A stretch of DNA of 64,000 nt from Gemmatales bacterium (lineage in GTDB: Bacteria > Planctomycetota > Planctomycetia > Gemmatales > HRBIN36). The position numbers were made by a program, and so were the translations under genes. The notes under the pieces are model-generated. The model saw only the letters and a list, made by a program, of their open reading frames with translations, was not told the origin of the DNA and searched no databases. Positions 25,719-51,517 of the stretch are shown piece by piece (positions within the stretch are counted from its first letter, which is position 1; each line of letters starts with the position of its first letter). Where the stretch lies: NCBI GenBank assembly GCA_035430005.1, contig DAOMFV010000002.1, positions 27,283-91,282 on the forward strand, read 5' to 3'.

Positions 25719-26306
25719 ATGAGTCGCTTTGGATGTTCATCCTTGGCCATCCTGTTGCTTAGTGGGCAAATCGCCATCGCAGCAGATTGGTTTCCTGATG
25801 ACAAAACTGGTTTGAAAGTTGGTGAGAAAGCGCCAGCATTCAAACTCATGGATCAGAATGGCTCTGAGCGGACATTGAAAGAACTACATAAAGACAACGC
25901 AGTGGCACTCGTCTTTTACCGATCAGCGAGCTGGTGACCATACTGTCAAAAGCAACTGGTCCAGTTGCAAAAAGATATCAGTAAGATTGAGGCTGCAGGC
26001 GTCAAGGTTGTTGGCATTAGTTACGATTCAGTGGAAGTATTGAAGAACTTCGCAGCTAAAAGGAACATCACATTCCCTTTGTTATCCGATCCTGACAGCA
26101 AGACGATTGTTTCCTATGCCATCAAGAACAAGGAAATGGCGGGAAAGAAGTTCGGCAAAACTGATCTGGACGGCATTCCCTATCCTGGAACATTCCTTGT
26201 TGATAAAGAAGGCATCATTCGAGCCAAGCTCTTTGTGGATGGTTACCGTGAACGTCATTCCATTGAAGAACTTGTGAAAGCGGCTGAAGCACTGAGAAAA
26301 AAATAG
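25719..26306 (+). CDS. Secreted AhpC/TSA redoxin, putative selenoprotein (U73, UxxC)
   Basis: ORFs 25680..25937 and 25965..26306 are in frame; FYRSASW-TGA(25935-25937)-PYC. Confidence 0.88.
25952..25968 (+). promoter_or_regulatory. SECIS-like hairpin
   Basis: GCAACT-GGTCC-AGTTGC starting 15 nt after the TGA. Confidence 0.7.
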
Positions 26307-26481
26307 AAGATAACGTCTCGATGTCGGGCGGCGATTGTCGTTCGACAGAGCAGTTCTTCTATCGACGGGTTTCTTCGTTGTTTACCGATCAGGCCCAAGC
26401 AAAATAAGACTGCACAGCTTCCATCAGTATTATGGTATGTGCCGCAGGGGGCTCTCAACAATCGAGAACGCACGTCTTGTC

Positions 26482-27699
26482 TCAGGCTGTCAAGCGAACG
26501 GTCACGACACCATGCTGCAAAGCACGCAACCGTTTGCCCATCAATAGGCGGAGCAGGCTGCTCTTCGCAAGCAGGGGGAGAAGCCGCATCGCAAGTCGGG
26601 GGCCGAACCGGTCTGACCCAAGAAAGGTCTGGGTTTGTTTCCGCTGATGCTCCTGGATGGCGATAATCTCCGGCATCCGCTCGGCCGCGACCTGATTGGC
26701 AGCGGCATCGACGGCTACAGAGTCATTGACGTGTATGAGCACCGGGCACAGGTGATTGGCAGCGACCAGGGCATCGCGCAACGCCACGTTGATACCTTGC
26801 CCACCGTTGGGCGACATCGGGTGAGCCGCGTCCCCCAGCAGCAGAAGTCCAGGAGCTGTCCACGTCTCCAAGCGGCCGACCTTGACATCGAGCAACACCG
26901 GGTGTTTGAGCGCCTGAGCGTTGGCCCGCAGATGCGCGGCTAGGTCAGGCGAGGTGCGGTGCAGCAACTCCTCGGTGAGCCCTTCCGGTCCAGAGTCCTT
27001 CAACGCTTTGTACTGGCCCTTCTGGATGGTCATGCCGACCCACAGCTGACCCTCAGCTGTAGGAATTCCGCCCGTGATGCAACCCGGCCCCAGCTCCAGG
27101 CGCACAGTCGTCCGGTCGGGCCAGAAGTCAGGGAAAGGAACATGGAAGTTCAGCACGTCGAAGTGCTGCGGCGATGTTAGCTCGGTGAAGGCTCCACGCT
27201 TACGGATCGTCGAATATCGTCCATCGGTGCCGATGACGAGGTCCGCTAGGAACTCGCTCGGTCCGTCCGGGCCCTCGGTTTGCACCCCCACCACGCGGTC
27301 GCCCACCCTGATCAAGTCCCGGACTGCTGTCCCCATGCAAAGCTGAAAGGATGGGTGCTTGCGGGACTCCTCAGTGAGCATGGCCAGGACAGCCGGCTGA
27401 GGGATAAAGCGGCCGATGAAACCCAGCGACTCGGTCGAGAGCGAGGCACGCCGACGGCCTCTCTGATAGATGTCAATGGTCTTGATGATGACCTGGGGGA
27501 GTTGGCGGAGCCGGTCCCCGAACCCCATCTGGTCGAAGGCATTAACGCCGCTGGGTTGCAACCCATCGCCGCGGAAGGTACGCGCAAAGTCGGGGTGCCG
27601 CTCCAGAAGTGTAACCTCCACCCCACGTCGGGCAAGCAGGTAAGCGAGAGCCGCTCCGGCAGGCCCTGCACCGACGATGACGACACGTCCTACCGCCAC
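26482..27699 (-). CDS. FAD-dependent monooxygenase/oxidoreductase
   Basis: GAGPAG, GTDGRYS, LLGDAAHPMSP.GGQGIN. Confidence 0.9.
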   Translation of the reverse strand: MAVGRVVIVGAGPAGAALAYLLARRGVEVTLLERHPDFARTFRGDGLQPSGVNAFDQMGFGDRLRQLPQVIIKTIDIYQRGRRRASLSTESLGFIGRFIPQPAVLAMLTEESRKHPSFQLCMGTAVRDLIRVGDRVVGVQTEGPDGPSEFLADLVIGTDGRYSTIRKRGAFTELTSPQHFDVLNFHVPFPDFWPDRTTVRLELGPGCITGGIPTAEGQLWVGMTIQKGQYKALKDSGPEGLTEELLHRTSPDLAAHLRANAQALKHPVLLDVKVGRLETWTAPGLLLLGDAAHPMSPNGGQGINVALRDALVAANHLCPVLIHVNDSVAVDAAANQVAAERMPEIIAIQEHQRKQTQTFLGSDRFGPRLAMRLLPLLAKSSLLRLLMGKRLRALQHGVVTVRLTA

Positions 27700-27902
27700 A
27701 ATTCAACTCCCTTCAGCCTCGAGAAACAGCGGCTCTCTGAACCCCTGTACAACCATACTCGTCCTATGGCAGTAGTGTGTCAAGCAGGTTTCCTTGCAGT
27801 TGTTATCCTGTAACTTCCAATCCAGTGAACCGCCTCTACAGGTCCCGGGGGCTTGGTTGCCATTATAATTCTAATGGCTACTGTCCCCAAGGAATTGTGA
27901 TC

Positions 27903-28097
27903 ATGACTCTTACCACGAAGTCCATCATGTCGGCCATGGCTTTAACTGAACGACTCCTAAAGTTAGCAGAAAGCGCTGATAGGGCGACCATCAAACACAT
28001 CGTCGGCGACTTGGAAGTGCAACTAGCCAAGATTAAACAGGAAAGAGAACTGTTGATTCGGGAGAATCAGGAATTGAAACGAAAAGCCGCATGTTAA
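27903..28097 (+). CDS. Small coiled-coil hypothetical protein
   Basis: LEVQLAKIKQERELLIRENQELK heptad pattern. Confidence 0.5.
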   Translation: MTLTTKSIMSAMALTERLLKLAESADRATIKHIVGDLEVQLAKIKQERELLIRENQELKRKAAC

Positions 28098-28135
28098 CAG
28101 ACACATGTGATGGTGTTTAGCGAAAAGACCTCTAT

Positions 28136-29699: not shown

Positions 29700-30056
29700 A
29701 TGCTACGGGCAACTCTTGCACTACTCGCCTCAGTGACGTTGTTGGCAATGACAGTATGGGCTGATGACAAGAATAAAGACAAGCCTCAAGCTGTAAGCAA
29801 AATGCTGGTCACCTATGTCATGGCTGATGTGCCGAAAAACACGCTCACTTTTAAGATCACAGACAAGGCTGGGAAAAAGATCGAGATAAAGCTGCCATTG
29901 GACAAAGATGCGAAGGTTTTGAATAAGGATGACAAGTCCGAAAGCTTTGCTGATTTTGCCAAGAGCATGGAACGCCGGTTGGATAAATCCATTTACATTA
30001 TCGAGGATAAGGAACACCTTCATATTACACAGATAAAGGACATCGATACGTTCTGA
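29700..30056 (+). CDS. Secreted Lys/Asp-rich protein, paralog 1
   Basis: Signal peptide; TYVMADV.KN.LTFK.TDKAGK..E.KLPLDK. Confidence 0.75.
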   Translation: MLRATLALLASVTLLAMTVWADDKNKDKPQAVSKMLVTYVMADVPKNTLTFKITDKAGKKIEIKLPLDKDAKVLNKDDKSESFADFAKSMERRLDKSIYIIEDKEHLHITQIKDIDTF

Positions 30057-30188
30057 AAACGGTGAGATCGATAGTGGGCCTTATGCATCAGGAGATAAAT
30101 TAACCCAACTGTAGTCTGAGTAATGACGTGTCATTTCAGGGCGGTCCTGGACTATTACCAGAAATACCGTGGGTGATGGAGAATCGAG

Positions 30189-30548
30189 ATGTTTAGAACC
30201 ACCCTAGTCTTATTGGCGATAATGATGCCATTCTCTTCCATAGCAAGGGCTGATGACAGCAAAGGCGACAAGTCGAAAGAAAACAAAGGGATTGTCGCTA
30301 CCTATGTGATGGCAGATGTTGCGAAGAGCATAATCACTTTTAAGGCCACTGATAAATCCGGCAAAACGATTGAAACGAAATTGCCATTGGACAAGAATGC
30401 AAAAGTCCTTGGTTCAGACGATAAGCCTGAGAAGCTTGCAGACTTTGTAAAAAGAATAGAGTCTAGAAAGGACAAATGCATCATCATTGTAGAAGATAAG
30501 GAAAATCAGCGCATCCTTGAGCTGAGGAACATTCCAAAGAAGATGTAG
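30189..30548 (+). CDS. Secreted Lys/Asp-rich protein, paralog 2
   Basis: Same motif as 29700..30056. Confidence 0.75.
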   Translation: MFRTTLVLLAIMMPFSSIARADDSKGDKSKENKGIVATYVMADVAKSIITFKATDKSGKTIETKLPLDKNAKVLGSDDKPEKLADFVKRIESRKDKCIIIVEDKENQRILELRNIPKKM

Positions 30549-33132: not shown

Positions 33133-33408
33133 TGCTCAGTCTTGATACCTGGAGCTGTCTGTGTCGTCACCATGAATTATACTTGCACCTTGCAAAAGCC
33201 AGGCTGCGGAACGCCAGACAAATCACGAGTAAATCTATCAACATAGGAGCTTCGGAAGGATATCAACGATACCATCAGATTAGACAGCATCTGTCATGGT
33301 GAACAGTTCTGCAAACTATCGTACAAGTTAATTGTGTGCTTCAGCGAAGCAGTGCGAGATCAACAAAGATCATAGCAATAAAGTAGAAAGGAACTTCAGG
33401 AGAGCGAG

Positions 33409-34227
33409 ATGCAAATAGCCTTGATTCAGCAAATGGCGAGTGCTGATACAGCAGCAAACCTGTCCCGTGCCCTGGCAGCCATCGAGTCAGCAGCTGCTCG
33501 TGGCGCTGAACTGGTTGCGTTCGCTGAATTGGCTTTCGAGCCGTTTTATCCGCGTGAGCGTGCATGTAGAACAGTTGCCAATTTGGCCCAACCTATTCCC
33601 GGACCAACAACCAGTGCCCTGGCTGAAGCAGCTCGCCGGCACGGCGTCGTCATTGTAGCCAACCTGTACGAACGGGATGGTGAGCACTGCTATGATACTT
33701 CACCGGTCTTGGATGCTGATGGCACTTTGCTTGGTCGCACCCGGATGATCCATATTACCGAGTACGAAGGTTTTCATGAGCAGGGTTATTACTCACCAGG
33801 GAATACTGGGGTGCCCGTGTACCAGACGAAGCTCGGTAAGATCGGCGTAGCCATCTGTTATGATCGACACTTTCCCGAAGTCATGCGGGCGCTGGGAGTA
33901 GGAGACGCCGAGTTGGTGATTGTTCCTCAAGCAGGAACAGTCGGCGAATGGCCTGAAGGGTTGTACGAAGCAGAAATGCGTGTCGCAGCGTTTCAGAATG
34001 GATACTTTGTCGCTCTGTGTAATCGAGTAGGAAAGGAAGGTATCCTTCACTTTGCCGGCGAGTCGTTCATCTGCAGCCCGGAAGGTGTTGTTATTGCCAG
34101 AGCAGCAACCGATGCTGAAGAAATCCTGCAGACGAACCTCGACTTAACTGCGTGTGACCGTTCACACGCCAGGCAACTGTTCCTACGCCACCGCCGACCA
34201 GAACTGTATGCCGGGTGGGTGAAATAG
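33409..34227 (+). CDS. Carbon-nitrogen hydrolase (nitrilase/N-carbamoylputrescine amidase-like)
   Basis: FAEL, GVAICYDRHFPE, NRVG. Confidence 0.88.
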   Translation: MQIALIQQMASADTAANLSRALAAIESAAARGAELVAFAELAFEPFYPRERACRTVANLAQPIPGPTTSALAEAARRHGVVIVANLYERDGEHCYDTSPVLDADGTLLGRTRMIHITEYEGFHEQGYYSPGNTGVPVYQTKLGKIGVAICYDRHFPEVMRALGVGDAELVIVPQAGTVGEWPEGLYEAEMRVAAFQNGYFVALCNRVGKEGILHFAGESFICSPEGVVIARAATDAEEILQTNLDLTACDRSHARQLFLRHRRPELYAGWVK

Positions 34228-34278
34228 CTAAAACTGTACCCTAAACAATGAAAGATATCGGAGTATGGGTCTACTGTT

Positions 34279-34770
34279 TCATTGTTCGAGTGCCTTCTTA
34301 AGAGCCAACGGTACTGGGCGGCCTGCCTTTTCCAGTGCTGCCTTCATCTGCTTTAGTAACCCAACCTGCGACCAGTCGTTTTCCCAACGAGGGATCAGGT
34401 CTTTCTCCGAATTGTCAATGAAACGCACGACCGGATTGTTCCACGCCGGTTCCTTGAACTTCTTCAGCACCTTTTCATCGTCGCCAGGTACGTTATTGTA
34501 AATTGCCACGGCAACAAACTCACTACTTGCCACTTCTACAACCAGACGATGCGACAGCGGACCGCTGCCGAACTGCTTGCAAGTCGATCAGCCAGGCACC
34601 TCCTGGAAGACTAGCATGATCGGTTTGCCTACCGCCTTCGCCTGCTTGAGGGCCACATCATAGCTACGCAGCCATTTGACCTTTCCCAGTTCTTCGGGTT
34701 GCTCGACGTTGCCATTGAGCAAACATCCCACACTGGCGACCATGGCAATCCCCGTCACTAACTGATACAT
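34279..34770 (-). CDS. Thioredoxin-like putative selenoprotein with QEVPG-U-STC motif (VPGU-type family)
   Basis: ORFs 34588..34830 and 34279..34533 are in frame across TGA at 34588-34590; WNNPVVRF. Confidence 0.88.
34552..34570 (-). promoter_or_regulatory. SECIS-like hairpin
   Basis: CGGCAGC-GGTCC-GCTGTCG starting 18 nt after the TGA. Confidence 0.7.
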
Positions 34771-34809
34771 GATTACCCCTTTCAACTGCATTCTAATTGC
34801 ATCAATAAG

Positions 34810-34846
34810 AAAAAACACCGCCTGGGCCAATCGCCAAGCGGTGTTT
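34810..34846 (-). terminator. Hairpin plus U tract after the CxxU gene
   Basis: AAACACCGC...GCGGTGTTT followed by Ts on the minus strand. Confidence 0.55.
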
Positions 34847-34884
34847 GGGTGTCATAGATACTGTGACGATTCGCCAACAGTAAG

Positions 34885-39836: not shown

Positions 39837-42800
39837 TTACTTCGAAGCAATTGTCTGCGGTTCATTCCCGACGTAAGCCAGCCAGTAACTCACTGGGATC
39901 ACGAACAACGTGAAGATCGTGGAAGCGATCAAGCCGAAGATCAACGCCCAGCCCAAACCGGAGAAGATCGGGTCCAAAGTGATTGGCAAGCTGGAAAGCA
40001 TAGCTGCGCTTGCAGTCAGCAGGATAGGCCGCAAGCGGACCACACGGCTCTCCATGATCGCATCAAAGAGTGGCCGTCCCCGCTTCACGGCTTGGTGAAT
40101 GAAGTCCACCAGGATGATAGAGTCACGGGTGACGATGCCTGACAAGGCAATCATCCCGATCATGGCTGTTGCAGTAAAGTAAACTGGATCAGCAAATCCA
40201 CCCACGGATTGTCCCATCATGGTGTTCAGGAGGTAGAAACCTGGCATGACCCCCAGTACGGTTAAGGGGATAGCTAGCATGACAATCAGAGGAATCAGGA
40301 ACGACCCTGTTTGAGCGACCAGGATGATGTAAATCATGATCATGGCGGCACCGAAAGCGAGCCCCAGATCGCGGAAGACATCAAGCGTGATCTTCCATTC
40401 CCCTTCACCTGCAAACTCAACTCGAATGCCTTCTGGAACCCCCCAAGCTATGTCGCTGCCATTGGAATAATAGGTGCGTTTGTTAACCGCTCGAGGATTA
40501 CCTTTTGCAACGAATCCTTTCGCCTTTCCTTCTTGCTTATCGACAGAGACATCGACGATGCACTCAGCAGGCGGTCGGCCAGCTGTTTCGCCGAAGACAT
40601 AAACCACACGTTCCAGGTTTTTGTGATAGATAGTTTGATCGACTTTGCTTTTCTTCCAGACTCCCAGCTCTGCTAGCGGTACCAGTTGGCCATGACTTCC
40701 TTTAATGTTCAAATAAGACAAGTCAGGCAAACTCGACCGAATGGTTCGAGGCAGTCGAACTACAATCCTAAGTGGCTGTCTTTCCCCTTCGACTCGTACC
40801 ATTTCGTAGTTGTCACCATTCAAAGCAAGTCGGATGGTTTCAGCCAACTCTGCGATGGAGATGCCTGCCAGGGCTGCCTTTTCCTGATCAGGCACAAAGA
40901 TCTGCTTGGTGACCAGTGCCTCACGAACGTCATCGACATCCACGATTCCTGGTTCCACAGCGAACCTCTGTTTAACAATGTCTGCGGCTGCTAAGAGTTG
41001 ATCGTATGTGTTCTCAGCTTCTCCATAAACTTCAGCCACAACTGATGCCAGAACAGGTGGTCCGGGAGGCAGTTCGACAATCCTAAGTGTGGTGTTATGT
41101 TTATTGGCAATGGCAGTGAGATCATTTCGCATCCGAAGTGCCAGGGCATGGCTTTGTAGTTTGCGGTACTTTTTGGGAACCAAGTTAAGACGAATCTCAG
41201 CAAGATGCGAGCCCTGCCGTAGGTAGTAATGGCGAACAAGGCCATTGAAATCGATTGGACTATTGACGCCAATGAAACTGGAATAGTCAGTCACTTCAGG
41301 AACGCTGGCTAGATAAGCTTCAAAATCTTGAACGACAGCACTGGTTCTTTCGAGGGTAGTACCTTCATCCTGATCCAGCACCAGCAGAAGTTCATTCTTG
41401 TTATCAAAGGGCAACATTTTGAGTGGAACGGAACGAGTGGCTGCCAGGCCCATGGCAGCCACCGTTAATACTCCGATGATCAGCAGAAAGAACCCTGCTC
41501 GCCATTTCGATGTCAGCAGCGGCTTCATCAAAGGAAGGAAGAGCCTGTACAGCAGAGTCTTCTTGATTCCTTCGGGATCGTAACTTTCTTGATGTCCCCC
41601 CGTACTAGCAGATGAGGATTCCTCTGTCGGCTTTGGGTATTTTCGTTTGAGCATGACGTAGCTCAGCCAGGGGGTAATGGTAAAAGCCACGACCATGGAC
41701 ATGAACATGGAGACAGGAACATTTAGTGCCATGGGTGCCATGTAGGGCCCCATCATCCCGGTGATGAAGAACATCGGCAGAAAGCTGACGATGACCGCAA
41801 GAGTAGCACTAATGAGCGGAGGCCGAATCTCAGCTACAGCTTCGAGCACAATCCTATGTGATGCAGCCTTGCGTTCTTCGAAATGACGTTCGATGTTCTC
41901 GACATCGACGATGGGATCATCTACAAGCAAACCAAGCGCCAGGATCAGAGCAAAGAGTGTGACCCGGTTAATTGTGTAGCCAAAGAGCAGATTGACTGCG
42001 AGAGTCAGGCCAAAGACTACCGGAATGGCAATGGCTACCACGATGGCTGCACGCCAGCCCATGCTGAGTGTCAACAGGGCAATCACAATCAGAATGGCCA
42101 CACCCAAAGCTTCTACCAGTTCGTTGACTTTCTCGTCAGCTGTCTGGCCATAGTTCCGAGTGATGACCAGTTCGACATTTTCGGGTAGGACTTTTTCCTT
42201 GAGTGTTTCAGCATACTTCATGATGCGATCAGCAATGGCTACTGCATTCGTGCCTTTCTTCTTGGCCAGCGCAATGGTGACAGCTGGCTTAGAATCCTCG
42301 ATCTTGGTTGTACCATGATCTTGTTCGGCTCCAATCATCGTGCCCGGGCTGCCTGGATGAGTGACAAAACCACGCGCTGGCCCCCAGCCATGGCGCATCA
42401 TGGTCGTCATTTCATCGGGACCATCACGAACAGTTGCAACATCTTTCAAGAAAACAGGGCGATCCAGAAAGACGCCAACGACAAGATTTCTCAGTTGCTG
42501 AGGATTGGTAATTCCAACGCCGGCCTCAACGCTGAATGTCACATCACCTTTCGTGAAGTCTCCCGCAGGGATGGTGATATTGGCGCCAGCCAGGGCTTTG
42601 CGTACTTCCAATGGACTCAGCGAGAAGGCCTGCATTTTATCGGGATCAAGATCGATACGAACCGCTCGTGAGACCCCTCCTGTCACGAAGGCACGGGAGA
42701 TATCAGGGATGGAAGAGAACCGTTCTACCAATTCCTCACCGATACGGCGAAGAGAATAGGAGTCACCGCCAGTCAATGCCAGCGTAACGATAGGAACATC

Positions 42801-43256
42801 ATCAATCTCAATAGGCTTGATTACCCACCCTGTCACGCCACGCGGGATCAGATCAACATTCTCGTTGATCTTCTTGTTCAGTTTGACGAGGCTGCGTTCC
42901 CGATCCTGCCCTACGAAAAACCGGACCGTGATAATAGCCTGGTTTTCACGAGACATGCTGTAGACGTATTCGACGCCATCGATCTGGTAGAGAAATCTCT
43001 CCAGCGGGGTTGATACCAGTTGTTCTACTTCATGAGCCGAATGGCCGGGGAAGTTGACAAAGATGTCGGCCAGGGGAACAACAATCTGGGGATCTTCTTC
43101 ACGGGGAGTGATGTAGAGAACTGCAAGCCCCACCAGCATCGAAAAAACAATCAGGATGATCGAAAGTTTGGAATCGAGGAAGATGCGAACCAGCCAGGTG
43201 AGCAGATCGTCACGCTCGGTACCTTGGGCTGTTTTGTTAATCGGTACATCCTGCAT
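39837..43256 (-). CDS. RND efflux permease (AcrB family)
   Basis: PREEDPQI, GLLVDDPIVDVENI, RLRPILLT. Confidence 0.93.
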   Translation of the reverse strand: MQDVPINKTAQGTERDDLLTWLVRIFLDSKLSIILIVFSMLVGLAVLYITPREEDPQIVVPLADIFVNFPGHSAHEVEQLVSTPLERFLYQIDGVEYVYSMSRENQAIITVRFFVGQDRERSLVKLNKKINENVDLIPRGVTGWVIKPIEIDDVPIVTLALTGGDSYSLRRIGEELVERFSSIPDISRAFVTGGVSRAVRIDLDPDKMQAFSLSPLEVRKALAGANITIPAGDFTKGDVTFSVEAGVGITNPQQLRNLVVGVFLDRPVFLKDVATVRDGPDEMTTMMRHGWGPARGFVTHPGSPGTMIGAEQDHGTTKIEDSKPAVTIALAKKKGTNAVAIADRIMKYAETLKEKVLPENVELVITRNYGQTADEKVNELVEALGVAILIVIALLTLSMGWRAAIVVAIAIPVVFGLTLAVNLLFGYTINRVTLFALILALGLLVDDPIVDVENIERHFEERKAASHRIVLEAVAEIRPPLISATLAVIVSFLPMFFITGMMGPYMAPMALNVPVSMFMSMVVAFTITPWLSYVMLKRKYPKPTEESSSASTGGHQESYDPEGIKKTLLYRLFLPLMKPLLTSKWRAGFFLLIIGVLTVAAMGLAATRSVPLKMLPFDNKNELLLVLDQDEGTTLERTSAVVQDFEAYLASVPEVTDYSSFIGVNSPIDFNGLVRHYYLRQGSHLAEIRLNLVPKKYRKLQSHALALRMRNDLTAIANKHNTTLRIVELPPGPPVLASVVAEVYGEAENTYDQLLAAADIVKQRFAVEPGIVDVDDVREALVTKQIFVPDQEKAALAGISIAELAETIRLALNGDNYEMVRVEGERQPLRIVVRLPRTIRSSLPDLSYLNIKGSHGQLVPLAELGVWKKSKVDQTIYHKNLERVVYVFGETAGRPPAECIVDVSVDKQEGKAKGFVAKGNPRAVNKRTYYSNGSDIAWGVPEGIRVEFAGEGEWKITLDVFRDLGLAFGAAMIMIYIILVAQTGSFLIPLIVMLAIPLTVLGVMPGFYLLNTMMGQSVGGFADPVYFTATAMIGMIALSGIVTRDSIILVDFIHQAVKRGRPLFDAIMESRVVRLRPILLTASAAMLSSLPITLDPIFSGLGWALIFGLIASTIFTLFVIPVSYWLAYVGNEPQTIASK

Positions 43257-44341
43257 TAGCGGCTTCCTTCGCTGGAGGTTTCGGAAGAACGTAACGCCAC
43301 TTTCTCGCCAGTACTGAGCCCTGAAAGAACTTCGTAGTCGCCATTCTGCAAGCGTCCCAGTTGCACGATTCGCCGATGCACAGCATTGCCTGTCACGACA
43401 TCGACCATATCGAGTTGGCCGACACGGTAGATAGCGGCTTGCGGTACCACCACCACCGTCTCATCTCCCAGTGGGATGGAGATGCGTCCGAACATGCCAC
43501 TATAGATTCCCGGAGGACATGGGCCAGACACTTTGACGATGAATGATCGACTGGAAGCCTGGGCTTCAGGAACGATCTCTGTGATTGTGGCATCGCATGT
43601 GTAATTAAGTGCATCGAGCCTGGTTGGGATAACTTGACCAACCTTCAGCTTCAGTGCCATGGATTCACGTACGGTGGCCAGAAGTTGCATACGTGTTGGA
43701 TCGTAAACAGTGAACAACACCTGGCCAGGGATTACTGTATCACCCACTTCAACACGTTTATCAATCACGATACCGCTCATGGGTGCACGAATCGTGGCAT
43801 AACTCAGGATGATCGTTGCTTCGTTCACGAGCTGTTTTGTACGTTCAACTTCAGCTTTGGCTCCTTTGCCTTCACGTGTGATGGCATCGTACTCTGCTTC
43901 CGAGATAGCTTGGCTCTTACGCAGGTTATTGGCACGGACCAGATCAATATTTGACTTCTCCAGTGAAGCAACGGCAGACGACGCAGCAGCTTCGGCCTGT
44001 TTCAGTCTTGCAATTAAGTCTGAATCATCCAGGCGAACCAGGATTTCATCCTTAGTCACAGGCTGCCCGGCCTTGATCTTGACTTCCATCACCCGAGCGA
44101 GAATCTTCGAAGCTACTGCGGATTCTTGAACTGCTCGAATTGTGCCAATAGCACTCTCGAACCGCTGCCAGGGAACGGATCGGACATCGGCCACTTGCCC
44201 TGTAAATGACTTCGCAGCCACACTTGAATTGTCAGGTGATGAGCTGATCTTCTTCTTGAAATATCCAGCGAGTGCCAACATCAGAACGGCAATACCACCA
44301 ATCATGAGCAGGCTTAGCAAGATTTGTCTGGTCACACGCAT
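43256..44341 (-). CDS. RND periplasmic adaptor (MFP)
   Basis: IRAPMSGIV, lipoyl-like and alpha-hairpin pattern, EVLSGL..GE. Confidence 0.92.
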   Translation of the reverse strand: MRVTRQILLSLLMIGGIAVLMLALAGYFKKKISSSPDNSSVAAKSFTGQVADVRSVPWQRFESAIGTIRAVQESAVASKILARVMEVKIKAGQPVTKDEILVRLDDSDLIARLKQAEAAASSAVASLEKSNIDLVRANNLRKSQAISEAEYDAITREGKGAKAEVERTKQLVNEATIILSYATIRAPMSGIVIDKRVEVGDTVIPGQVLFTVYDPTRMQLLATVRESMALKLKVGQVIPTRLDALNYTCDATITEIVPEAQASSRSFIVKVSGPCPPGIYSGMFGRISIPLGDETVVVVPQAAIYRVGQLDMVDVVTGNAVHRRIVQLGRLQNGDYEVLSGLSTGEKVALRSSETSSEGSR

Positions 44342-44371
44342 CGGTATTCTCGCTTGGACTCATGGTCAGTG

Positions 44372-44929
44372 TCACAGCTTGTCAGACCGTTTGGTTTTTC
44401 GCACAGCTTCAAGCAGTTGAGTAATGGAAGGACGATCCGTGGGATCGGCGCTGCGGTAGGCAAAGACGAGACGGCGAGTCTGATCTATTACGAAATCGCC
44501 CCCAAGTTGTAAAAGGTCCTCATTCTTCACTGGTCTCCGGACTCTCCAACCCTGGAACATACGTACAAGATAACTCCCGATTACCTTGAACGAGAGAAAC
44601 ATCCTGGCCTTGCCTGGTAGTAGACCAAAGTCGCGGTAAACCTGACGTTCCGGATCACAAACCACAGGGAATGGCTTAGGATCGTCTTCCAAGCGTATCC
44701 GCAAATGCTCCGGACGACTTTGCGTTACCACGACGAGTTCTCCCCCCATGGCTCGTATCTCCTGCAAATGCTCCTGCACCTCGCCGAGGTGTGCCTGGCA
44801 GAGGATTCACATGAGATGCCGATAGAAGATCAGTATCATCGGCCCCGAAGCGAATCCGGAAAGCCTGACCATGCTTCCATCAGGTCGAATGAAAGAGTGA
44901 TCATGGACGATGTCACCATTCGAATACAT
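44372..44929 (-). CDS. Peroxiredoxin-like (PRXL2/SelL-related) putative selenoprotein (U41, UxxC)
   Basis: Manual translation MYSNGDIVHDHSFIRPDGSMVRLSGFASGPMILIFYRHLM-TGA(44807-44809)-ILCQAHL, continuing into ORF 44372..44779 (QLGGDFVID, DPTDRP). Confidence 0.87.
44777..44791 (-). promoter_or_regulatory. SECIS-like hairpin
   Basis: CACCTC-GGC-GAGGTG starting 16 nt after the TGA. Confidence 0.62.
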
Positions 44930-44930
44930 G

Positions 44931-45167
44931 TCATCGTTCCATGGGTTTTTGTTCGTTGATTGGCTGAGTTGATTCAGCAGGAGTGTCTATTGGCCGCGAC
45001 CGCGGCGTGCATTGCCCTCTGAGTCAGCTCTTCACCCCAAACATGGGAAGTATCCAAAGCTGGATTATGAAATACAGTGCGATAAACCCCAGGGGCATGA
45101 GGTAGTCCATCAGTTGTTTCCTCTTGGAAGTGGAGAGAGTTTGCTTCTCTGTTTGGTTATTGTCCAT
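44931..45167 (-). CDS. Small (78 aa) single-TM putative selenoprotein, UxxxxC
   Basis: AGGAG RBS; ...FIIQLWILPMFGVKS-TGA(45024-45026)-LRGQCTP...MER; read-through stop lies 1 nt before the next ATG. Confidence 0.72.
44993..45006 (-). promoter_or_regulatory. SECIS-like hairpin
   Basis: GCCGC-GGTC-GCGGC starting 18 nt after the TGA. Confidence 0.62.
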
Positions 45168-45188
45168 GATTCGCTCCTATATGACTTG

Positions 45189-45718
45189 CTATTTCTGAGA
45201 CTTATCCGGGACTGGGTGGTTCTTTTGTACTTCAGAGTGCCCCAGTTCGACGAACTTGCTGACCACCTCAGCATGGGCCTGGATCAGCTTGGCAACGTAG
45301 GGTTGTGTTGAGATCTCAACCACTTTCACTCCCTTCTCTGTTTGCTCAACATTCATCGTTATGGACTTGGTGTTCCGGAAGATCGCCGCGAACAATGGAT
45401 CACGCAGATGAATACCGCGACCATCCTTGACACGTTTATGCATGGCTGCCACATGTTCCTTGATCTTGCTCGCCACTTCGGGTTTTTGGATTCCGTTAGC
45501 GTTTCGACACCACTCTCAATCATCTTGATTGAGCGACGTATTTCGCTTCGATGGTCAAGCAGGTAGTGGAAGACTTCTTGGTCATTCGCCATATTGCTAT
45601 CTTTTCTGCCGGGTCCCTGTATGGGAGCCCCAGGAAATGATGCTGCCATTGACGGTGCCTGAAAGCCGCAGAAAAAGATGCATGTTGTTGTCAGAGAGAA
45701 AGTAAAAGTCGTTCGCAT
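45189..45718 (-). pseudogene. Secreted His-containing protein split by a one-base frameshift
   Basis: GVETLTESKNP / EVASKIKEHVAAMHKR; frame change within AAAAACCC near 45480; internal repeat GVETLTES vs GVKVVEIS. Confidence 0.7.
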
Positions 45719-45746
45719 CGAGTTACTCCATTCGAAGAGGTAGGTT

Positions 45747-45923
45747 TCATGGCTGTTGCTCATGTATCAGAATCAACCCACCGCCTGCAAAAGCTGTCAC
45801 GACCAGGAACCAGGGATGCAAGGTCAAGGCGAGTATCGCCCCAAGCAAAGCAATCGTTCCCCAGAATACGAAGCTGCGCCGATGATATGACCAACGTGAA
45901 AACGAACTTCTGTGACTTTGCAT
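45747..45923 (-). CDS. Small two-helix membrane protein, YgaP-like
   Basis: Manual translation ...FVFWGTIALLGAILALTLHPWFLVVTAFAGGGLI; GGGGAG RBS. Confidence 0.55.
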   Translation of the reverse strand: MQSHRSSFSRWSYHRRSFVFWGTIALLGAILALTLHPWFLVVTAFAGGGLILIHEQQP

Positions 45924-45959
45924 AAAGGGCTCCCCAGTAAGCAGCTTCTACAAATCAGA

Positions 45960-46169
45960 TCAGATGGCGGTAGATGCTTTGGAGGATTGACGTCCGACCC
46001 CCAAATACCTCAGGATAATTTCCAATGGGCAGAAGTGAGTGAATGCTGACTGAAGCAGATTCACGCCGACAAAAGCTGTGAAGAGATACCAATAGGGAGA
46101 GTAAAGGTACCCTAACGCCAACGAGATAAGAATAAAGCTACCAGCGAATGCACGAATGATGTTTTCCAT
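45960..46169 (-). CDS. DUF2892/YgaP-like membrane protein
   Basis: IRAFAGSFIL, FVGVNLLQSAFTHFCPLE. Confidence 0.88.
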   Translation of the reverse strand: MENIIRAFAGSFILISLALGYLYSPYWYLFTAFVGVNLLQSAFTHFCPLEIILRYLGVGRQSSKASTAI

Positions 46170-46223
46170 GGTCAAGCTCCTTTTCTATGATCAGGTCACC
46201 TGTTAATGACCTTACACAGGAGT

Positions 46224-46248
46224 GATCCACAAAGCCCCTATAGGTTAC
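46224..46248 (-). promoter_or_regulatory. Putative ECF promoter GTAACC-N14-GGATC for the DUF2892-selenoprotein-RND operon
   Basis: gtaacc tataggggctttgt ggatc on the minus strand. Confidence 0.65.
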
Positions 46249-46273
46249 AGTGGAATATAGGTTTCTTTTTCTT

Positions 46274-46298
46274 GTAACCTTTTGCATGATCAAGGATC
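46274..46298 (+). promoter_or_regulatory. Putative ECF promoter GTAACC-N14-GGATC for the rhodanese-sigma operon
   Basis: gtaacc ttttgcatgatcaa ggatc. Confidence 0.65.
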
Positions 46299-46356
46299 AT
46301 AACGTACAGCTGATCAATTGATTGGTCACTTTTTCTTCAAGTAGGAGGCGGTTACT

Positions 46357-46746
46357 ATGCGTTCGTTGTGCTGTGGCATCGCTATGCTCTTCGGGTTTTC
46401 CTGCTTCGGACACGCTGCTGACCATACGAAAGACTCTTTGCAGACAGTCAAGAAAGGCCTGACAGACAAGAAAGCTGTTCTCGTCGATGTCCGAGAACTC
46501 GATGAATGGAATGATGGTCATCTAAAAGAAGCTAAGCATTTAGCCTTATCACAGATCAAGAATGGCATCAAAGACGAGAAGTTGAAAGAGCTCATTCCAC
46601 CGGGAAAGATCGTTTACCTGCATTGTGCTGCTGGTGGACGTTGCCTGAAAGCAGCTGATATGCTCAAAAACAAGGGCTACGACATTCGTCCACTTAAACC
46701 TGGATACGATGCGTTGATTAATGCAGGATTTGAGAAAGCTCCCTAG
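46357..46746 (+). CDS. Secreted rhodanese-domain sulfurtransferase
   Basis: LVDVRE..EW..GH, YLHCAAGGR. Confidence 0.9.
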   Translation: MRSLCCGIAMLFGFSCFGHAADHTKDSLQTVKKGLTDKKAVLVDVRELDEWNDGHLKEAKHLALSQIKNGIKDEKLKELIPPGKIVYLHCAAGGRCLKAADMLKNKGYDIRPLKPGYDALINAGFEKAP

Positions 46747-46805
46747 GCTATCATGAAGGAGCCAAATAGTCTGAAGGTGTAAATCCAGACTGGTAATGAA
46801 CCTTC

Positions 46806-47471
46806 ATGGTCAGCCACGCTCCAACGCCACAGCTCGATGCACTAGCCGATGAATGCTTAGGTCTATTGCGACAAGCTCAGTCAGGAGATTTCGCAGCGTT
46901 CGGTTTGCTGGTTGATCAGTTGCAGCAACGAGTGTTCGGATTGGCCTATCGGATTCTGGGTGAATCGCATGATGCAGAAGACGTGGCTCAGCAGACGTTT
47001 CTGAGCCTGATTGAGAATCTGGACAGCTTTCGAGGGGAGTCCACGGTTAGAACCTGGGTGCTACGTATCGCCGCCAATCATGCACTGAAGCTGCTGCGTA
47101 AACGGCGAGGCTTACCCACAGAACCGACGGGCGATACCAGCTATGCCGACATTCCGCATCCAGAGTTCATTGCGCCCTGGCGAGATGAACCGAGTGTGCT
47201 GGCTGAGCAACACGAAACACGAAAACTAATAGTCCAAGCGCTGACAGAGATACATGAACACTATCGAGAAGTGTTCATTCTGCGAGATATGGAAGGATTC
47301 TCGGTGAAAGAGACAGCAGATTTACTGGGCATCAGTGAAGCAAACGTCAAAGTACGTTTATTGCGTGCCCGGTTGGCCCTACGTGAGCGATTGACAGTAA
47401 GCCTGGGTGATGAAAAGGATCGTGTTATTCCAGATCATCAACATGTCTCCGCTCATGGTGAAACATCATGA
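46806..47471 (+). CDS. ECF RNA polymerase sigma factor
   Basis: DAEDVAQQTF, TWVLRIAAN, ETADLLGISEANVKVRLLRAR. Confidence 0.92.
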   Translation: MVSHAPTPQLDALADECLGLLRQAQSGDFAAFGLLVDQLQQRVFGLAYRILGESHDAEDVAQQTFLSLIENLDSFRGESTVRTWVLRIAANHALKLLRKRRGLPTEPTGDTSYADIPHPEFIAPWRDEPSVLAEQHETRKLIVQALTEIHEHYREVFILRDMEGFSVKETADLLGISEANVKVRLLRARLALRERLTVSLGDEKDRVIPDHQHVSAHGETS

Positions 47472-47740
47472 ACAACCAACCCGAACAAGGCATGACTTGC
47501 GAAGAGCTACTGAAAACACTCAACGAATACGTCGATAACGACGGATTGTCTGCAGCTTGTCAGGAATTTGCTGAACATCTTTCCGGCTGCAATCCCTGCC
47601 AGATCGTGGTTGATAACATCAGGAACACCATCAAGCTGTATCAGAATGGCCAGCCCTACCCGATACCTCCAGCCTTCTCCGCCCGTCTGCATCAAGCTCT
47701 TGCTGCTAAGTGGCGGGAGAAGTTTCCACAAACATCATAA
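47468..47740 (+). CDS. Soluble zinc-binding (ZAS, zf-HC2) anti-sigma factor
   Basis: C..L...L.EYVD, HLSGCNPC; ATGA coupling to the sigma gene. Confidence 0.88.
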   Translation: MNNQPEQGMTCEELLKTLNEYVDNDGLSAACQEFAEHLSGCNPCQIVVDNIRNTIKLYQNGQPYPIPPAFSARLHQALAAKWREKFPQTS

Positions 47741-47781
47741 CCTGCCAAGTAATCCCACCTCTTTCTGTTCCAAGGTGCCCT

Positions 47782-48489
47782 ATGAACCATCGTGCCTACG
47801 TGTTGATTCTGAGCTTGATAACGGTGATTGCTGCTTCGGCTCAGGAGAAAAGTGTAAAGCCAGGTATAAATGACGCCTTTCGTAACCCCAATGTGAAGGA
47901 ATGGGTCGAGAAGTTCGAAGGCGAAAGTCGTGAGACCTTTGAGAAGCGTAAAGAAGTGGTGGAAGCCTGCCAGATTAAGCCGGGCCAGGTGGTAGCCGAC
48001 ATCGGAGCAGGCACCGGGCTGTACACGAGGCTCTTCGCCAAGGAAGTAGACAACAAGGGAAAAGTGTATGCCGTTGATATCTCACAGAAGTTTCTTGACC
48101 ATATTGATAAAAGCTGTCAGTCACTGCAACTCAAGAACGTGAAGACGATACTCGGTAAAGATGCCTCCCCAGAACTGCCAGAGAACAGCATCGACATGGC
48201 ATTTATCTGCGATACCTACCATCACTTTGAGTTTCCCTACAAGATGCTTACTTCAATTCATCAGGCCATGAAACCCAAAGGCAGGCTGGTGATCATTGAT
48301 TTCATCCGCGTACCAGGACAAAGCCGCGAGTGGGTATTGGGACATGTGCGAGCTGGCCAAGACGTGGTAGAGCAAGAAATCATCAAGAGTGGTTTCAAGA
48401 AAGTGAATGAGGTCAAGTCTCTGTTCAAGGAGAATTACTTCGTGGTCTTCGAGAAGGCTGAAGAATCCAAAAGCAATAGCAAGCCATAG
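47782..48489 (+). CDS. Secreted class I SAM-dependent methyltransferase
   Basis: Signal peptide; VADIGAGTG, DTYHHF. Confidence 0.88.
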   Translation: MNHRAYVLILSLITVIAASAQEKSVKPGINDAFRNPNVKEWVEKFEGESRETFEKRKEVVEACQIKPGQVVADIGAGTGLYTRLFAKEVDNKGKVYAVDISQKFLDHIDKSCQSLQLKNVKTILGKDASPELPENSIDMAFICDTYHHFEFPYKMLTSIHQAMKPKGRLVIIDFIRVPGQSREWVLGHVRAGQDVVEQEIIKSGFKKVNEVKSLFKENYFVVFEKAEESKSNSKP

Positions 48490-48524
48490 GCCTGAAAGGT
48501 TATTTGACTTCTACTGAGAGCACG

Positions 48525-49886
48525 ATGTCACAATCGGTAATGCCGTCTCGACAGTTTGGCTTCTGGTCTGCCCATTTTGTGGTGATTGCATCCATGATTG
48601 GAGCGGGAATCCTGACGACCTCAGGATTCACACTTCGTGAAACAGGCAGTCCACAAGCACTCCTGGGACTATGGCTTCTCGGTGGTATCATGGCACTGGC
48701 TGGTGCTGTGACCGTCGCCGAACTGGCAACGATGCTGCCCAAAGCCGGTGGCGACTATCTTTATGTTCGTGAAGCCTTCGGCCCCGGGGCTGGTTTTGTC
48801 AGCGGCTGGTCAACTTTTGTTCTGGGCTTTGCAGCACCGACCGCCGTCGTGGCTTCAACTGCCATCAATTATCTTTTCACCTTCGTGCCTACTGAGTGGC
48901 TTGATACTTGGCCAAGCTGGCTGGTGACATCACGGATTCCACTGGGTGCAAGTATCATGATTGCCCTGGTGACGATTGGGCATTGCTTCGGCCATCGGCA
49001 AAGCTCCATCATTCAGGTGATATCAACATGTGTCAAGCTCCTGATCCTGTTTGGCCTGGCACTGCTGGGCCTACTGGTAGGCAAGGGAAACTGGAACCAC
49101 CTGTCACAAGGCGGAATGCCAACCTACGACCAGTTGCCGGCGCTGGGTGTAGGTTTGATCTACATCGGTTATGCCTACTCCGGCTGGAATGGTGCCAGTT
49201 ACCTGGCTGGCGAAGTACGTGATCCACGCAAACTCATACCACGGGCATTGATCACAGGCTGCCTTGTCGTGATTGGGCTGTATCTACTATTGAACCTGAC
49301 ATTTGTTTATGCACTTGATCCTGCCGAAATGAAGACGCTTCCCATGGATCAGGTAGCCAGGGTAGCAGAGCTTGCTGCATCAAGATTGTTTGGGTCTCAA
49401 GTCTCAACAGTACTATCGACATTACTTGGATTGACTCTGGTTGCTTCGGTCAGTGCCTATCTGCTGGCCGGGCCCCGTGTCATGTTTGCCATGGCACGTG
49501 ATGGCTACTTTTTCCGCTTCGTCGGCAGGTTGCATCCCCGTTACGACGTGCCTGTAGCATCAACCATTATGCAAGGCTTGCTGGCAATCTGCTTTCTCTG
49601 GTCAGGAACCTTCCTTCAACTATTGGATTACACATCAGTGGGTTTGGCAGCACTGTCCGGGCTCACGGTAGCTTGTGTTTATCCTTTGCGCAAGAGACGA
49701 GATCTTGCCGAAGCATATCGGATACCCTTCTACCCGTTGCCACCCCTGCTCTACTTGTGTTTGACACTTTGGACAGTAACTCAGGCACTGATGCAGTCAC
49801 AAAGTCGTTGGCCGACGGTACTTTCCCTTGCCACCATTGGGATCGGTATTGCACTTGGTTGGGCTATCAAAGGTAAACGGAAATAG
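48525..49886 (+). CDS. APC family amino acid permease
   Basis: MIGAGI, PKAGGDY.Y, AYSGWN, GEVRDP. Confidence 0.9.
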   Translation: MSQSVMPSRQFGFWSAHFVVIASMIGAGILTTSGFTLRETGSPQALLGLWLLGGIMALAGAVTVAELATMLPKAGGDYLYVREAFGPGAGFVSGWSTFVLGFAAPTAVVASTAINYLFTFVPTEWLDTWPSWLVTSRIPLGASIMIALVTIGHCFGHRQSSIIQVISTCVKLLILFGLALLGLLVGKGNWNHLSQGGMPTYDQLPALGVGLIYIGYAYSGWNGASYLAGEVRDPRKLIPRALITGCLVVIGLYLLLNLTFVYALDPAEMKTLPMDQVARVAELAASRLFGSQVSTVLSTLLGLTLVASVSAYLLAGPRVMFAMARDGYFFRFVGRLHPRYDVPVASTIMQGLLAICFLWSGTFLQLLDYTSVGLAALSGLTVACVYPLRKRRDLAEAYRIPFYPLPPLLYLCLTLWTVTQALMQSQSRWPTVLSLATIGIGIALGWAIKGKRK

Positions 49887-49900
49887 TGCTTGAACGGCGA

Positions 49901-50206
49901 TCAACCATGTCTACCTTTCGATAAATCCAATCGCAATACTTGTTCAGAGACCACGCCTTCGTGACGAGCAACGATCGCTCCATTCTTAAAGATCAGCAGT
50001 GCGGGAATCGCAGAAATGTGATAAGCCTGTGCAAGTGCCTGGTTCGTATCCACGTTGACTTTGCAGACTTTGTAATCTCTAGAGATCGATTCGAGCGTTG
50101 GATTCATCGCCCGACAAGGCCCACACCAAGCTGCCCAGAAATCGACCAGCACAGGCTCTGCTGATTGAATGACTTCTTTCTTCCAGTTAAACTCATGAAG
50201 TAACAT
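49901..50206 (-). CDS. Thioredoxin
   Basis: VDFWAAWCGPC, cis-Pro motif AIPAL. Confidence 0.92.
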   Translation of the reverse strand: MLLHEFNWKKEVIQSAEPVLVDFWAAWCGPCRAMNPTLESISRDYKVCKVNVDTNQALAQAYHISAIPALLIFKNGAIVARHEGVVSEQVLRLDLSKGRHG

Positions 50207-50394
50207 GACGTTTTCTCGCTGACCTATTATCCTTTTAGCTGCTTCTCCATTGTGGGCGTATGCACGCTGCAAATCAAGTATACTCTGTGTAAGACAATCA
50301 AACGAACCGGGAAAACTGAACGAGTAACATGATGGGGATCTACTCTACCCAATCGCACTGCCATCGCGGTAGCTATGCGTTCCTAGCACCAGAT

Positions 50395-50826
50395 TTATTG
50401 GATTAGCGTGACGAATGCCTGCTTCAATGCTTTTTGCTTGGGGGCAGGGAGAGTGCCCGGTTCGACGATGCTGATCATGGTCTTGCCGAGCACATGCTCG
50501 TCAGCAGCCAGGCGGAGTGACTTTTCCAGACTGCTCAAGCGATCCTTGCCCATCTGTTTGCTGAGCGAGGCACAAGCGAGTTCGATACGGTCTTTCTTTC
50601 CTGCATATTGCGGGGCGAGGAAGCAGATGCTGATATCCTTGCCATCGACAGCACCACGCAGACTTACGCCCCCTGCACCCCATTTGAGCGATCCACCTTG
50701 CTTGATCCAGGTGGCGATGAAGTCTCGAAAGTACGCGACGTTCGACGATTCGCATTCGGTGTAGAACTGATCCTCATCCATGATGCCTACACGGCACTTT
50801 GCTTTCTCGTCGTAGTAAGAAGGCAT
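50395..50826 (-). CDS. Hypothetical protein
   Basis: 143-aa ORF with AGGGG RBS. Confidence 0.6.
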   Translation of the reverse strand: MPSYYDEKAKCRVGIMDEDQFYTECESSNVAYFRDFIATWIKQGGSLKWGAGGVSLRGAVDGKDISICFLAPQYAGKKDRIELACASLSKQMGKDRLSSLEKSLRLAADEHVLGKTMISIVEPGTLPAPKQKALKQAFVTLIQ

Positions 50827-50931
50827 CGGATCAATCCCCTGTTTCAGAAGCGATTCGCTACATCCTTGTTGTAACATACCGCGCCTCAAATCGATGTCAT
50901 TCCATCTTTAGATGGTATTTCAATTAACCAT

Positions 50932-51507
50932 TCAAGCTGGACGTTGCATGACCAGCCCCCAATGCCAGGAGCAGCAGCACAGAGATTCGAAGCGAACCAA
51001 TTCGAGCCCGGCTTCCTCACCCCAAATCCGACATTGCTCTGCAGTAGGACGAATGGGCATCGAAGGTCCACGCGGAGTCTCTACATCAGTTCGCCAATGG
51101 ATAATCCCCGCTTTCCCCCCAGGCTGAAGGACACGATAGGCTTCTTTCAACAGGCCCACTGGATTCTCAATATGCAGAATGTTGAAGAGCATGGCGTAAC
51201 TAGCATGTGAATCTGGAAAGCCAGTGCCTTGCATTGCAAAGTCTCGTTCCACCGCTACTACATTTTCCAAACCTACTGATCGTGCTTTTGCCGCAGTCGC
51301 GTTTATCATCTCTTTTTCGATATCCAGCGCTATGAGCTTGCCCACAATTTGCTGAGCAGCTGGAATGGTAAATGTTCCGTAGCCACAACCAAACTCTACG
51401 ACATCACCGCACAGACCTGTGCAGTCCAGTTTGGCAATCATTCAACTCGGATTGAAAAAGGAATCCCAATACTCTTGATCGGGCATGCCACTTTCTCGTC
51501 CTTTCAT
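50932..51507 (-). CDS. Class I SAM-dependent methyltransferase with in-frame TGA at codon 22, candidate selenoprotein
   Basis: AAGGAG RBS then MKGRESGMPDQEYWDSFFNPS-TGA(51442-51444)-MIAKLDC; VEFGCGYGTF; C-terminal CCC. Confidence 0.75.
51406..51425 (-). promoter_or_regulatory. SECIS-like hairpin
   Basis: ACTGCACA-GGTC-TGTGCGGT starting 17 nt after the TGA. Confidence 0.68.
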
Positions 51508-51517
51508 GTGTAGCTCC

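Follow-up and report, generated by a model that had tools for sequence, protein, structure and literature searches.

In bacteria, the selenocysteine (Sec) insertion sequence (SECIS) recognized by SelB follows a consensus in which a hairpin places its loop 16 to 37 nt after the UGA codon, with a loop of the form N-G-[G/U]-N (PMC13188914). The same review catalogues 119 prokaryotic selenoprotein families in its Table 1. Prx-like, AhpC/TSA, and VPGU families are already catalogued there, and clusters of selenoprotein genes are also known, namely, Sao (six genes), Tso (three genes plus neighbors), and the Prx/SelW and Prx/AhpD pairs. The review makes no mention of planctomycetes, a phylum from which selenoproteins had already been reported in 2016. 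Here, we analyzed a 64,000-nt stretch of contig DAOMFV010000002.1 of the Gemmatales bacterium assembly GCA_035430005.1 (the window), in which seven genes, P0001 to P0007, each contain one in-frame TGA within 26 kb. The reading that we favor, with a probability of roughly three in four, is that these TGAs would be decoded as Sec via downstream hairpins and that the 26 kb forms a lineage-specific accessory island of separate redox and detoxification modules. Three of the genes (P0003, P0006, and P0007) represent families that appear to be uncatalogued, and the main value of the locus lies in these families and not in the cluster.

On the coding strand, the first bases of the TGA codons are at positions 25935 (plus), 34590 and 35262 (minus), 36037 (plus), and 44809, 45026, and 51444 (minus). 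An earlier annotation based on the letters alone (the sequence-only reading) had listed the same sites with their peptide contexts, giving minus-strand positions as the lowest coordinate of the codon; sites and contexts were borne out, and the reading frame is open both before and after the codon at 7/7 sites. TGAs flanked by open frames number several hundred in the window by chance, so an open frame alone is no evidence, and the case has to be made from SECIS-like hairpins and conservation. Sequence error was checked for positions 33400 to 52500, which hold every site except 25935: assembled public contigs had no differing letter there and showed the same TGA letters, with no Cys codons, at the six sites. 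These contigs come from four runs within a single study, and this DNA may itself derive from two of them. For one gene, the nearest named relatives belong to Gemmatales and Gemmataceae, and in a quick tree the protein of the window falls with a Gemmatales record, so that a Gemmatales planctomycete is the most likely source.

The sequence-only reading had proposed a genome search for selA, selB, selD, and tRNA-Sec, and all four were found in the assembly (5.40 Mb, 236 contigs, 92.6% complete). selA and selB are adjacent on contig C38 and score over their cutoffs, selD on contig C81 is also over its cutoff and carries an in-frame TGA of its own, and tRNA-Sec lies on contig C94. We propose that this SelA/SelB/SelD/tRNA-Sec set decodes the TGAs through a hairpin located shortly after the codon in each gene.

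At five of the seven sites, a hairpin with a GGUC or AGUU loop lies at +21 to +25 and fits the published N-G-[G/U]-N loop model. Genome-wide, the same pattern, which was set after inspecting these sites, follows 604/209,343 TGAs (0.29%). P0005 has the hairpin CACCUC-GGC-GAGGUG, with a GGC loop, at +21, and a hairpin 16 to 37 nt past the UGA with an early loop G is present in six genes. The hairpin of P0003, at approximately +25 to +47, is atypical, with a CNCG-type loop and a bulged stem, and it covaries. In 13 TGA copies of P0003, 86% of the alignment cells are paired, 18 cells are changed on both sides, and 0/500 shuffles score as high, versus 55% paired cells in 12 Cys copies, for which 341/500 shuffles score as high; the pairing model was drawn from one TGA copy and favors the TGA set. 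For the P0007 family, where codon, hairpin, and neighbor counts refer to the best 80 of 117 loci, the GGUC hairpin occurs in 17/17 TGA copies, 0/53 Cys copies, and 0/10 other copies. We regard this match between hairpin and codon as the strongest single result. The P0002 hairpin, also of the GGUC type, is present in 6/6 TGA copies and 1/5 Cys copies checked. An Rfam scan of the window gave no match, and promoter-like matches in the window were fewer than expected by chance.

Homologous coding sequence flanks the UGA on both sides in all seven genes, and 7/7 have relatives in which this codon is also TGA. The UGA aligns directly to Cys in homologues of P0002, P0003, P0006, and P0007. P0001, P0004, and P0005 contain an AhpC/TSA-type domain with an xxxC motif that begins with U, and the close homologues found for them all have TGA. 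Cys was found in relatives or family models for six of the genes, as anticipated from the TGA/Cys pairing that the sequence-only reading had suggested looking for. Its expectation that gene callers would split such genes also held: the database entry for P0007 is a 169-residue protein starting just past the TGA, and 74/89 database matches to P0006 stop exactly at the TGA site. With the machinery, the same-codon TGAs in relatives, and the SECIS-like hairpins all in agreement, it is very likely that all seven TGAs are read as Sec.

P0007 (positions 50932 to 51507, minus strand; TGA at 51444 to 51442, hairpin at +25) is a predicted class I S-adenosylmethionine (SAM) methyltransferase of 191 residues, with U22 in the motif FNPx-U and a C-terminal CCC. 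The U22 codon is TGA in 17 loci, Cys in 53, and another codon in 10. A quick tree requires nine changes for U, and supported branches force just one; U in this family may have a single origin. The predicted structure (predicted local distance difference test [pLDDT], 92.0) has its closest fold match in 3dh0, an uncharacterized protein. In an 89-row alignment, whose rows are related and not independent, 79/79 rows with Cys22 (the U of P0007 counted as C) hold two or three Cys residues at positions 177 to 179, and 10/10 rows lacking Cys22 have no Cys there. We infer that Sec22 and the CCC loop hold a thiophilic substrate, possibly to methylate it with SAM in partnership with an OsmC-like reductase. 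An OsmC-like gene (PF02566; positions 51518 to 51898, minus strand) begins 10 bp upstream of P0007 and adjoins the family gene in 19/80 loci. P0007 scores 17 to 32 bits against Sec-methyltransferase and ArsM models with cutoffs of 263 to 575 bits, including 24 bits against the ArsM model NF008823 (cutoff, 263), and 2/89 family members reach 1e-10 against an ArsM-fusion model.

P0006 (positions 44931 to 45167, minus strand; TGA at 45026 to 45024, hairpin at +23) is predicted to be a single-pass membrane protein of 78 residues with the motif WxLPxxGxx-U-xxGxC, in which U is residue 48, and it has no match in NCBIfam. Its start is most likely the ATG at 45167 behind AGGAG rather than 45110, as the longer N terminus is found in 7/7 close database relatives. 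A search of 40 relatives gave 17 matches, of which one (L055) was dropped as a wrong-frame match; the 16 genuine ones have TGA at the site in 16/16 cases. The GGUC/AGUU core occurs at +21 to +23 in 17/17 copies (that of the window included), 13 of which pass a strict stem score, and Gly, Cys, and Pro downstream of the TGA are conserved. A profile search matched 29/301 genomes of the phylum, 27 of them with TGA, and Cys stands five residues on in 15 of the 17 distant sites that were parsed. The top full-length database matches have Cys at the site in 13/15 cases. Within the order, the gene is often beside an extracytoplasmic function (ECF) sigma factor, a rhodanese, a conserved hypothetical gene, or a resistance-nodulation-division (RND) pump, an arrangement that is rarer beyond the order; the wider neighbors of both P0006 and P0007 are heterogeneous (70/125 called genes scanned, E of 1e-12). 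For the gene upstream of P0006, the Atlas returned "hypothetical" clusters only. P0006 could provide a membrane-anchored selenyl-sulfide redox or ligand site that works with the ECF-sigma/rhodanese/RND module.

P0003 (positions 34885 to 35445, minus strand; TGA at 35262 to 35260) is a predicted secreted protein of 186 residues with the motif C59-x-x-U62. The family is present in 41/41 genomes searched, with one TGA in 26/120 matches; of the 25 loci examined, 13 have TGA at this codon and 12 have Cys. TGA copies were found in 23/37 selA-positive genomes and in 0/4 genomes where selA was not found (P = 0.03 by Fisher's test, with related genomes not independent). The family has 817 representatives at an E value of ≤0.001, and among the matches listed, many begin just past the site. 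Pfam and NCBIfam scans of 90 members gave single weak matches only. The predicted model (pLDDT, 92.6) aligns to ResA/TlpA/DsbE and Tpx/Bcp structures (8t4c, 3gl3, and 2xpd) with Z scores of 16.6 to 17.2 and root mean square deviations of 2.1 to 2.5 Å over 137 to 144 residues (best match, Z of 17.2 and 2.1 Å over 137 residues); as modeled, P0003 has the thioredoxin/peroxiredoxin fold. The CxxC/U motif at residues 59 to 62 (conserved in 79 and 75 of 90 rows) lies on a short helix before strand 68 to 74, ahead of the strand that normally leads to CxxC. The helix that follows the first core strand does not begin with a CxxC/U, and at the usual CxxC site (residues 74 to 83), Cys is outside the five commonest residues in 90 rows. 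The model suggests that a redox or metal site has been relocated.

Two further P0003-like genes lie in the window: a Cys paralogue (positions 23493 to 24089, plus strand; 47.5% identity) that has CLVC, with Cys at the U position, and the broken remnant of a second copy (positions 52084 to 52360, minus strand), located ~17 kb from P0003, in which 233 nt are 85% identical to positions 34809 to 35041.

By their sequences, the other four genes are of known kinds: two are AhpC/TSA-like, one is SelL related, and one is a VPGU thioredoxin. P0001 (positions 25719 to 26306, plus strand; TGA at 25935 to 25937, GGUC hairpin at +21) encodes a predicted exported AhpC/TSA (Prx-like) protein of 195 residues with U73 in W-U-PYC (PF00578; E of 6e-35). 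P0004 (positions 35623 to 36390, plus strand, with the start uncertain in the range of 35611 to 35665; TGA at 36037 to 36039, AGUU hairpin at +21) encodes an AhpC/TSA protein of ~255 residues with W-U-TIC (PF00578; E of 3e-21) and, judging from hydropathy, three membrane helices. Both have UxxC and score well over the 26-bit gathering cutoff of PF00578 (120.3 bits for P0001 and 76.2 bits for P0004), and each has one match among 300 genomes of the phylum, with TGA at the same codon (G042 for P0001 and G162 for P0004). The P0001 homologue in G042 (L174, contig C37) is a fusion of the UPYC AhpC/TSA domain with a following stretch of ~140 residues, which we take to be DsbD-N-like.

P0005 (positions 44372 to 44929, minus strand; TGA at 44809 to 44807) encodes a SelL-related redox protein of 185 residues without a signal peptide, with U41 in U-ILC; it passes NF040769 (153 versus a cutoff of 120 bits), and its TGA is kept in congeners G002 and G003. 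P0002 (positions 34279 to 34770, minus strand; TGA at 34590 to 34588) encodes a VPGU thioredoxin-like protein of 163 residues with U61 in VPG-U-STC. It represents the N-terminal domain only of NF041383, covering model positions 1 to 132 of 287 (E of 4e-59) and scoring 200.5 bits, below the 275-bit cutoff. The family was matched in 12/200 genomes of the order, 7/12 with TGA, and the 11 copies checked comprise 6 with TGA and 5 with Cys. The relatives extend ~290 codons past the TGA, versus 103 in P0002, and carry a further domain of ~190 residues, presumably MsrA-like, which was not found in this genome.

The sequence-only reading had placed the products in the UxxC/CxxU thioredoxin-fold class, mostly with signal peptides or membrane anchors. 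Hydropathy supports the latter for 5/7 products. The former stands for the four known kinds; the remaining three are not known UxxC/CxxU families, and two of these are not of the thioredoxin fold. We suggest that P0001 to P0004 would act outside the cytoplasm, and P0005 inside it, as selenol peroxide or disulfide reductases.

Several observations weigh against our reading. The hairpin of P0003 lacks the G[G/U] loop, and the TGA and Cys copies of this gene could not be told apart by a simple comparison of folding free energy (P = 0.17). In distant P0006 homologues, the GGUC/AGUU hairpin was found in 2/17 cases. The Sec case for P0001 and P0004 depends on a single TGA homologue apiece, and P0002, which is without the C-terminal half of its relatives, may be decaying. 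A neighboring gene in the region is frameshifted, and no integrase, transposase, or flanking or boundary repeat of an island was found in the window. Furthermore, the functions given to the seven proteins are deduced from fold, motifs, and neighbors.

The seven genes are clustered beyond chance. The genome contains at least 15 selenoprotein genes, those outside the window being selD, three ResA/TlpA-like genes, one SelW-like gene, and three unnamed genes with a conserved TGA, and seven lie within 25.8 kb, or 0.48% of the genome. Random placements were as clustered in 0/200,000 runs for 16 genes and in 8/200,000 runs for 60 genes. The genome-wide TGA scan (coding score plus hairpin) is noisy, and as it missed selD and two window genes (recovering 5/7), the count of 15 is a floor. 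Scan candidates C63:9089, C31:1189, and C2:9041 were dropped on reading, and none of the formate dehydrogenase-like matches had an internal stop.

Such density could mean that the seven genes form one selected, coregulated Se-dependent system for envelope redox and arsenic or other metalloids, its clustering kept by function, in line with the "Sec-based envelope redox or metalloid-handling system" of the sequence-only reading. The local gene order offers some support. P0006 and P0005 are on the same strand, directly upstream of a membrane fusion protein, an RND permease, and a conserved hypothetical gene (positions 39285 to 44341, minus strand; Pfam), themselves followed by arsR-arsD-arsA (positions 36658 to 39284, minus strand; Pfam), and an ECF sigma factor lies mid-cluster. 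However, the genes fall into five blocks on both strands, with P0003-P0002 and P0006-P0005 as the only tandem pairs. In a congener assembled as a single contig (G004), the orthologues of P0006, P0003, and P0007 are dispersed at 3.14, 5.44, and 5.56 Mb, and searches of 14 members of the family gave no match to P0001, P0002, or P0004. The arsenic link fares no better: arsA and arsD are at 0/80 P0007 loci, arsR-arsD-arsA was not found at the relatives' loci, the RND module of G004, which has the same gene order, ends before the ars genes, and a search of five close relatives, made without a positive control, did not find arsA. We read the arsenic link as local to this genome and not conserved. 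Of the original proposal, the bias toward envelope redox functions is supported, and the single system and its metalloid role are not; we consider one machine improbable.

As the selenoprotein genes are scattered in relatives, a lineage-specific redox island is the likelier account, and we regard a mosaic rather than one system as likely. What recurs are submodules: the ECF/rhodanese/P0006/RND block, OsmC-P0007, and P0003 with a hypothetical gene. P0006-P0005 is the only recurring selenoprotein pair (G002 and G003), with a Prx-like neighbor in G272. The region is low in GC content (49.8% versus 54.5% ± 1.6%; 1/159 windows as low). A Sec-rich lineage may have gathered redox genes into one variable region, leading to the high Sec density.

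A second alternative, which we consider very improbable, is that some TGAs are true stops, with P0007 reinitiating at the next ATG, P0006 being a 47-residue membrane peptide, and the others being pseudogenes in a decaying island. The TGA-ATG of P0007 would leave its SAM motif whole, most P0006 database matches end at the site, and the surroundings include a gene with a frameshift, the P0003 remnant, and the shortened P0002. Nevertheless, reinitiation at the next ATG cannot explain the pattern in P0007, as the codon following the TGA is ATC or GTC in 6/17 copies, and Met is found there in Cys copies too. In P0006, every one of the 17 copies is interrupted by TGA, after which Cys and Pro are invariant, and nonsense mutations would not be expected to arise repeatedly at one Cys codon together with a covarying hairpin. 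That TGA is read as Cys or Trp, through an altered genetic code or by a suppressor tRNA, or reflects assembly errors is hardly credible: only the alignment to Cys speaks for it, TGA terminates 1352/4277 genes in simple gene calls (about one-third, indicating an unchanged code), the sole UCA-anticodon tRNA at default settings is tRNA-Sec, and the public contigs agree at six sites.

The neighbors named in the sequence-only reading (arsD, arsA, RND, rhodanese, YgaP-like, Trx, and OsmC) were confirmed by Pfam. Upstream of P0006 are a YgaP-like gene and a conserved 176-residue hypothetical gene (positions 45189 to 46175, minus strand), the latter (positions 45189 to 45763) with a frameshift near 45480; it is intact in G004, and the public contigs have the same letters as the window. 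Divergent from these are genes for a rhodanese, an ECF sigma factor, a zf-HC2 anti-sigma factor, a methyltransferase, and an amino acid permease (positions 46357 to 49886, plus strand; Pfam), a block conserved beside P0006 in G003 and G004. The thioredoxin (WCGPC) and hypothetical genes at positions 49901 to 50889 (minus strand; Pfam) flank P0003 in congeners. Elsewhere in the window, two tandem genes of 118 and 119 residues (positions 29700 to 30548, plus strand) share a 38-nt repeat, have no Pfam or NCBIfam match, and occupy its lowest-GC part. Positions 52380 to 53029, close to the right-hand end of the low-GC region, contain a pair of short direct repeats, of 27 and 40 nt and ~570 nt apart, adjoined by a 395-residue gene without a family (positions 53115 to 54302). 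A 1,528-residue protein (positions 55652 to 60238, minus strand) has a weak PKD-like match at its C terminus only.

Outside the window, three ResA/TlpA-like genes, which have W-U-(G/P)PC and the same type of GGUC hairpin at +32, and one SelW-like gene with CMM-U were located at C21:42282 (plus), C94:5698 (minus), C45:2483 (plus), and C43:31717 (minus). The gene at C43:11781 (minus; L165:4919-6034) encodes an exported protein of 372 residues with GHT-U-A(N/S)ADH and an AGUU hairpin; it has TGA at the same codon in 3/4 congeners and no match in NCBIfam, and its conservation suggests that it is probably another uncatalogued selenoprotein family. At C212:654 (plus; L168:567-842), a gene of ~92 residues with a signal or membrane segment and an AGUU core has U five residues before a Cys or adjoining one; TGA was found in 4/4 congeners, at or near the site in the three that aligned, and NCBIfam gave no match. 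A membrane microprotein of 37 residues at C80:21515 (plus; L169:3426-3536) ends in GG-U-GxxGC, with a GGUC hairpin overlapping the stop, weak TGA-bearing matches in 3/4 congeners, and the U-xxxx-C spacing of P0006. Finally, C78:480 (plus; L167:111-1382) encodes an exported protein of 424 residues with LG-U-TC and a CGUG-loop hairpin; it had no match in five relatives and is unconfirmed.

Among the families listed in the portions of four papers compared here (PMC13188914, PMC12013277, PMC13326102, and PMC4807772), none corresponded in motif or NCBIfam model to P0003, P0006, or P0007, and literature searches listed no paper that describes these families. One of them could still be contained in Haft and Tolstoy 2025, Deng et al. 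2026, or the BSepDB entries, or be the "hypothetical" planctomycete candidate in Table S9 of PMC4807772. On balance, we think it rather probable that at least two of the three families are unpublished. They would be added to the ~119 already catalogued, from a phylum absent from the review (PMC13188914). Each has tens of members, stored in databases as fragments. P0007 offers an unusually clean natural Sec/Cys series (17 versus 53) on the role of Se in a methyltransferase, and P0003 probes the flexibility of both the thioredoxin fold and SelB recognition. P0006 indicates that a short membrane peptide annotated as ending at TGA can in reality be a selenoprotein cut short. The locus likewise illustrates that a dense selenoprotein cluster need not equal a pathway. 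A bolder and rather doubtful extension is that Gemmatales-type planctomycetes have a largely invisible selenoproteome kept in "selenoprotein islands," with three new Se chemistries: a moved redox site with an atypical SECIS in P0003, a phylum-wide membrane microselenoprotein in P0006 that would serve an ECF-controlled RND pump by sensing or shuttling reactive sulfur or metals, and a non-ArsM methyltransferase in P0007 that would bind a metalloid or thiol via Sec22 and CCC.

Compared with known systems, the window genes share with other SelB/SECIS-dependent selenoprotein genes the in-frame UGA, a hairpin within the open reading frame, Cys homologues, and a genome with selABD and selC; the hairpin of P0003, with its CNCG-type loop and bulged stem, differs from the consensus. 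As in the Sao and Tso operons, unrelated selenoprotein genes are grouped, here seven of them, but they are not cooriented, and the gene set is not kept in congeners; the Sao and Tso models gave no whole-protein match, and P0002 had one weak partial match to TsoB. P0001, P0004, and P0005 resemble Prx-like and AhpC/TSA proteins with UxxC at the usual site, and P0004 differs by its three predicted N-terminal membrane helices. P0002 shares the VPGU motif of VPGUxxT type 2 (NF041383, OS_HP5), but it has UxxC instead of UxxT and ends after the thioredoxin domain. P0003 has the predicted fold of ResA/TlpA/DsbE and Tpx/Bcp proteins, whereas its CxxC/CxxU precedes the core strand, without Cys at the usual site. 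With ArsM, MduS, UXPK-star, ArsM/AhpD, and ArsM/DUF2284, P0007 shares the class I SAM fold, Sec, and several conserved Cys residues, and it differs from ArsM and the Sec methyltransferases in its single 191-residue domain, its FNPxU motif, and its OsmC neighbor.

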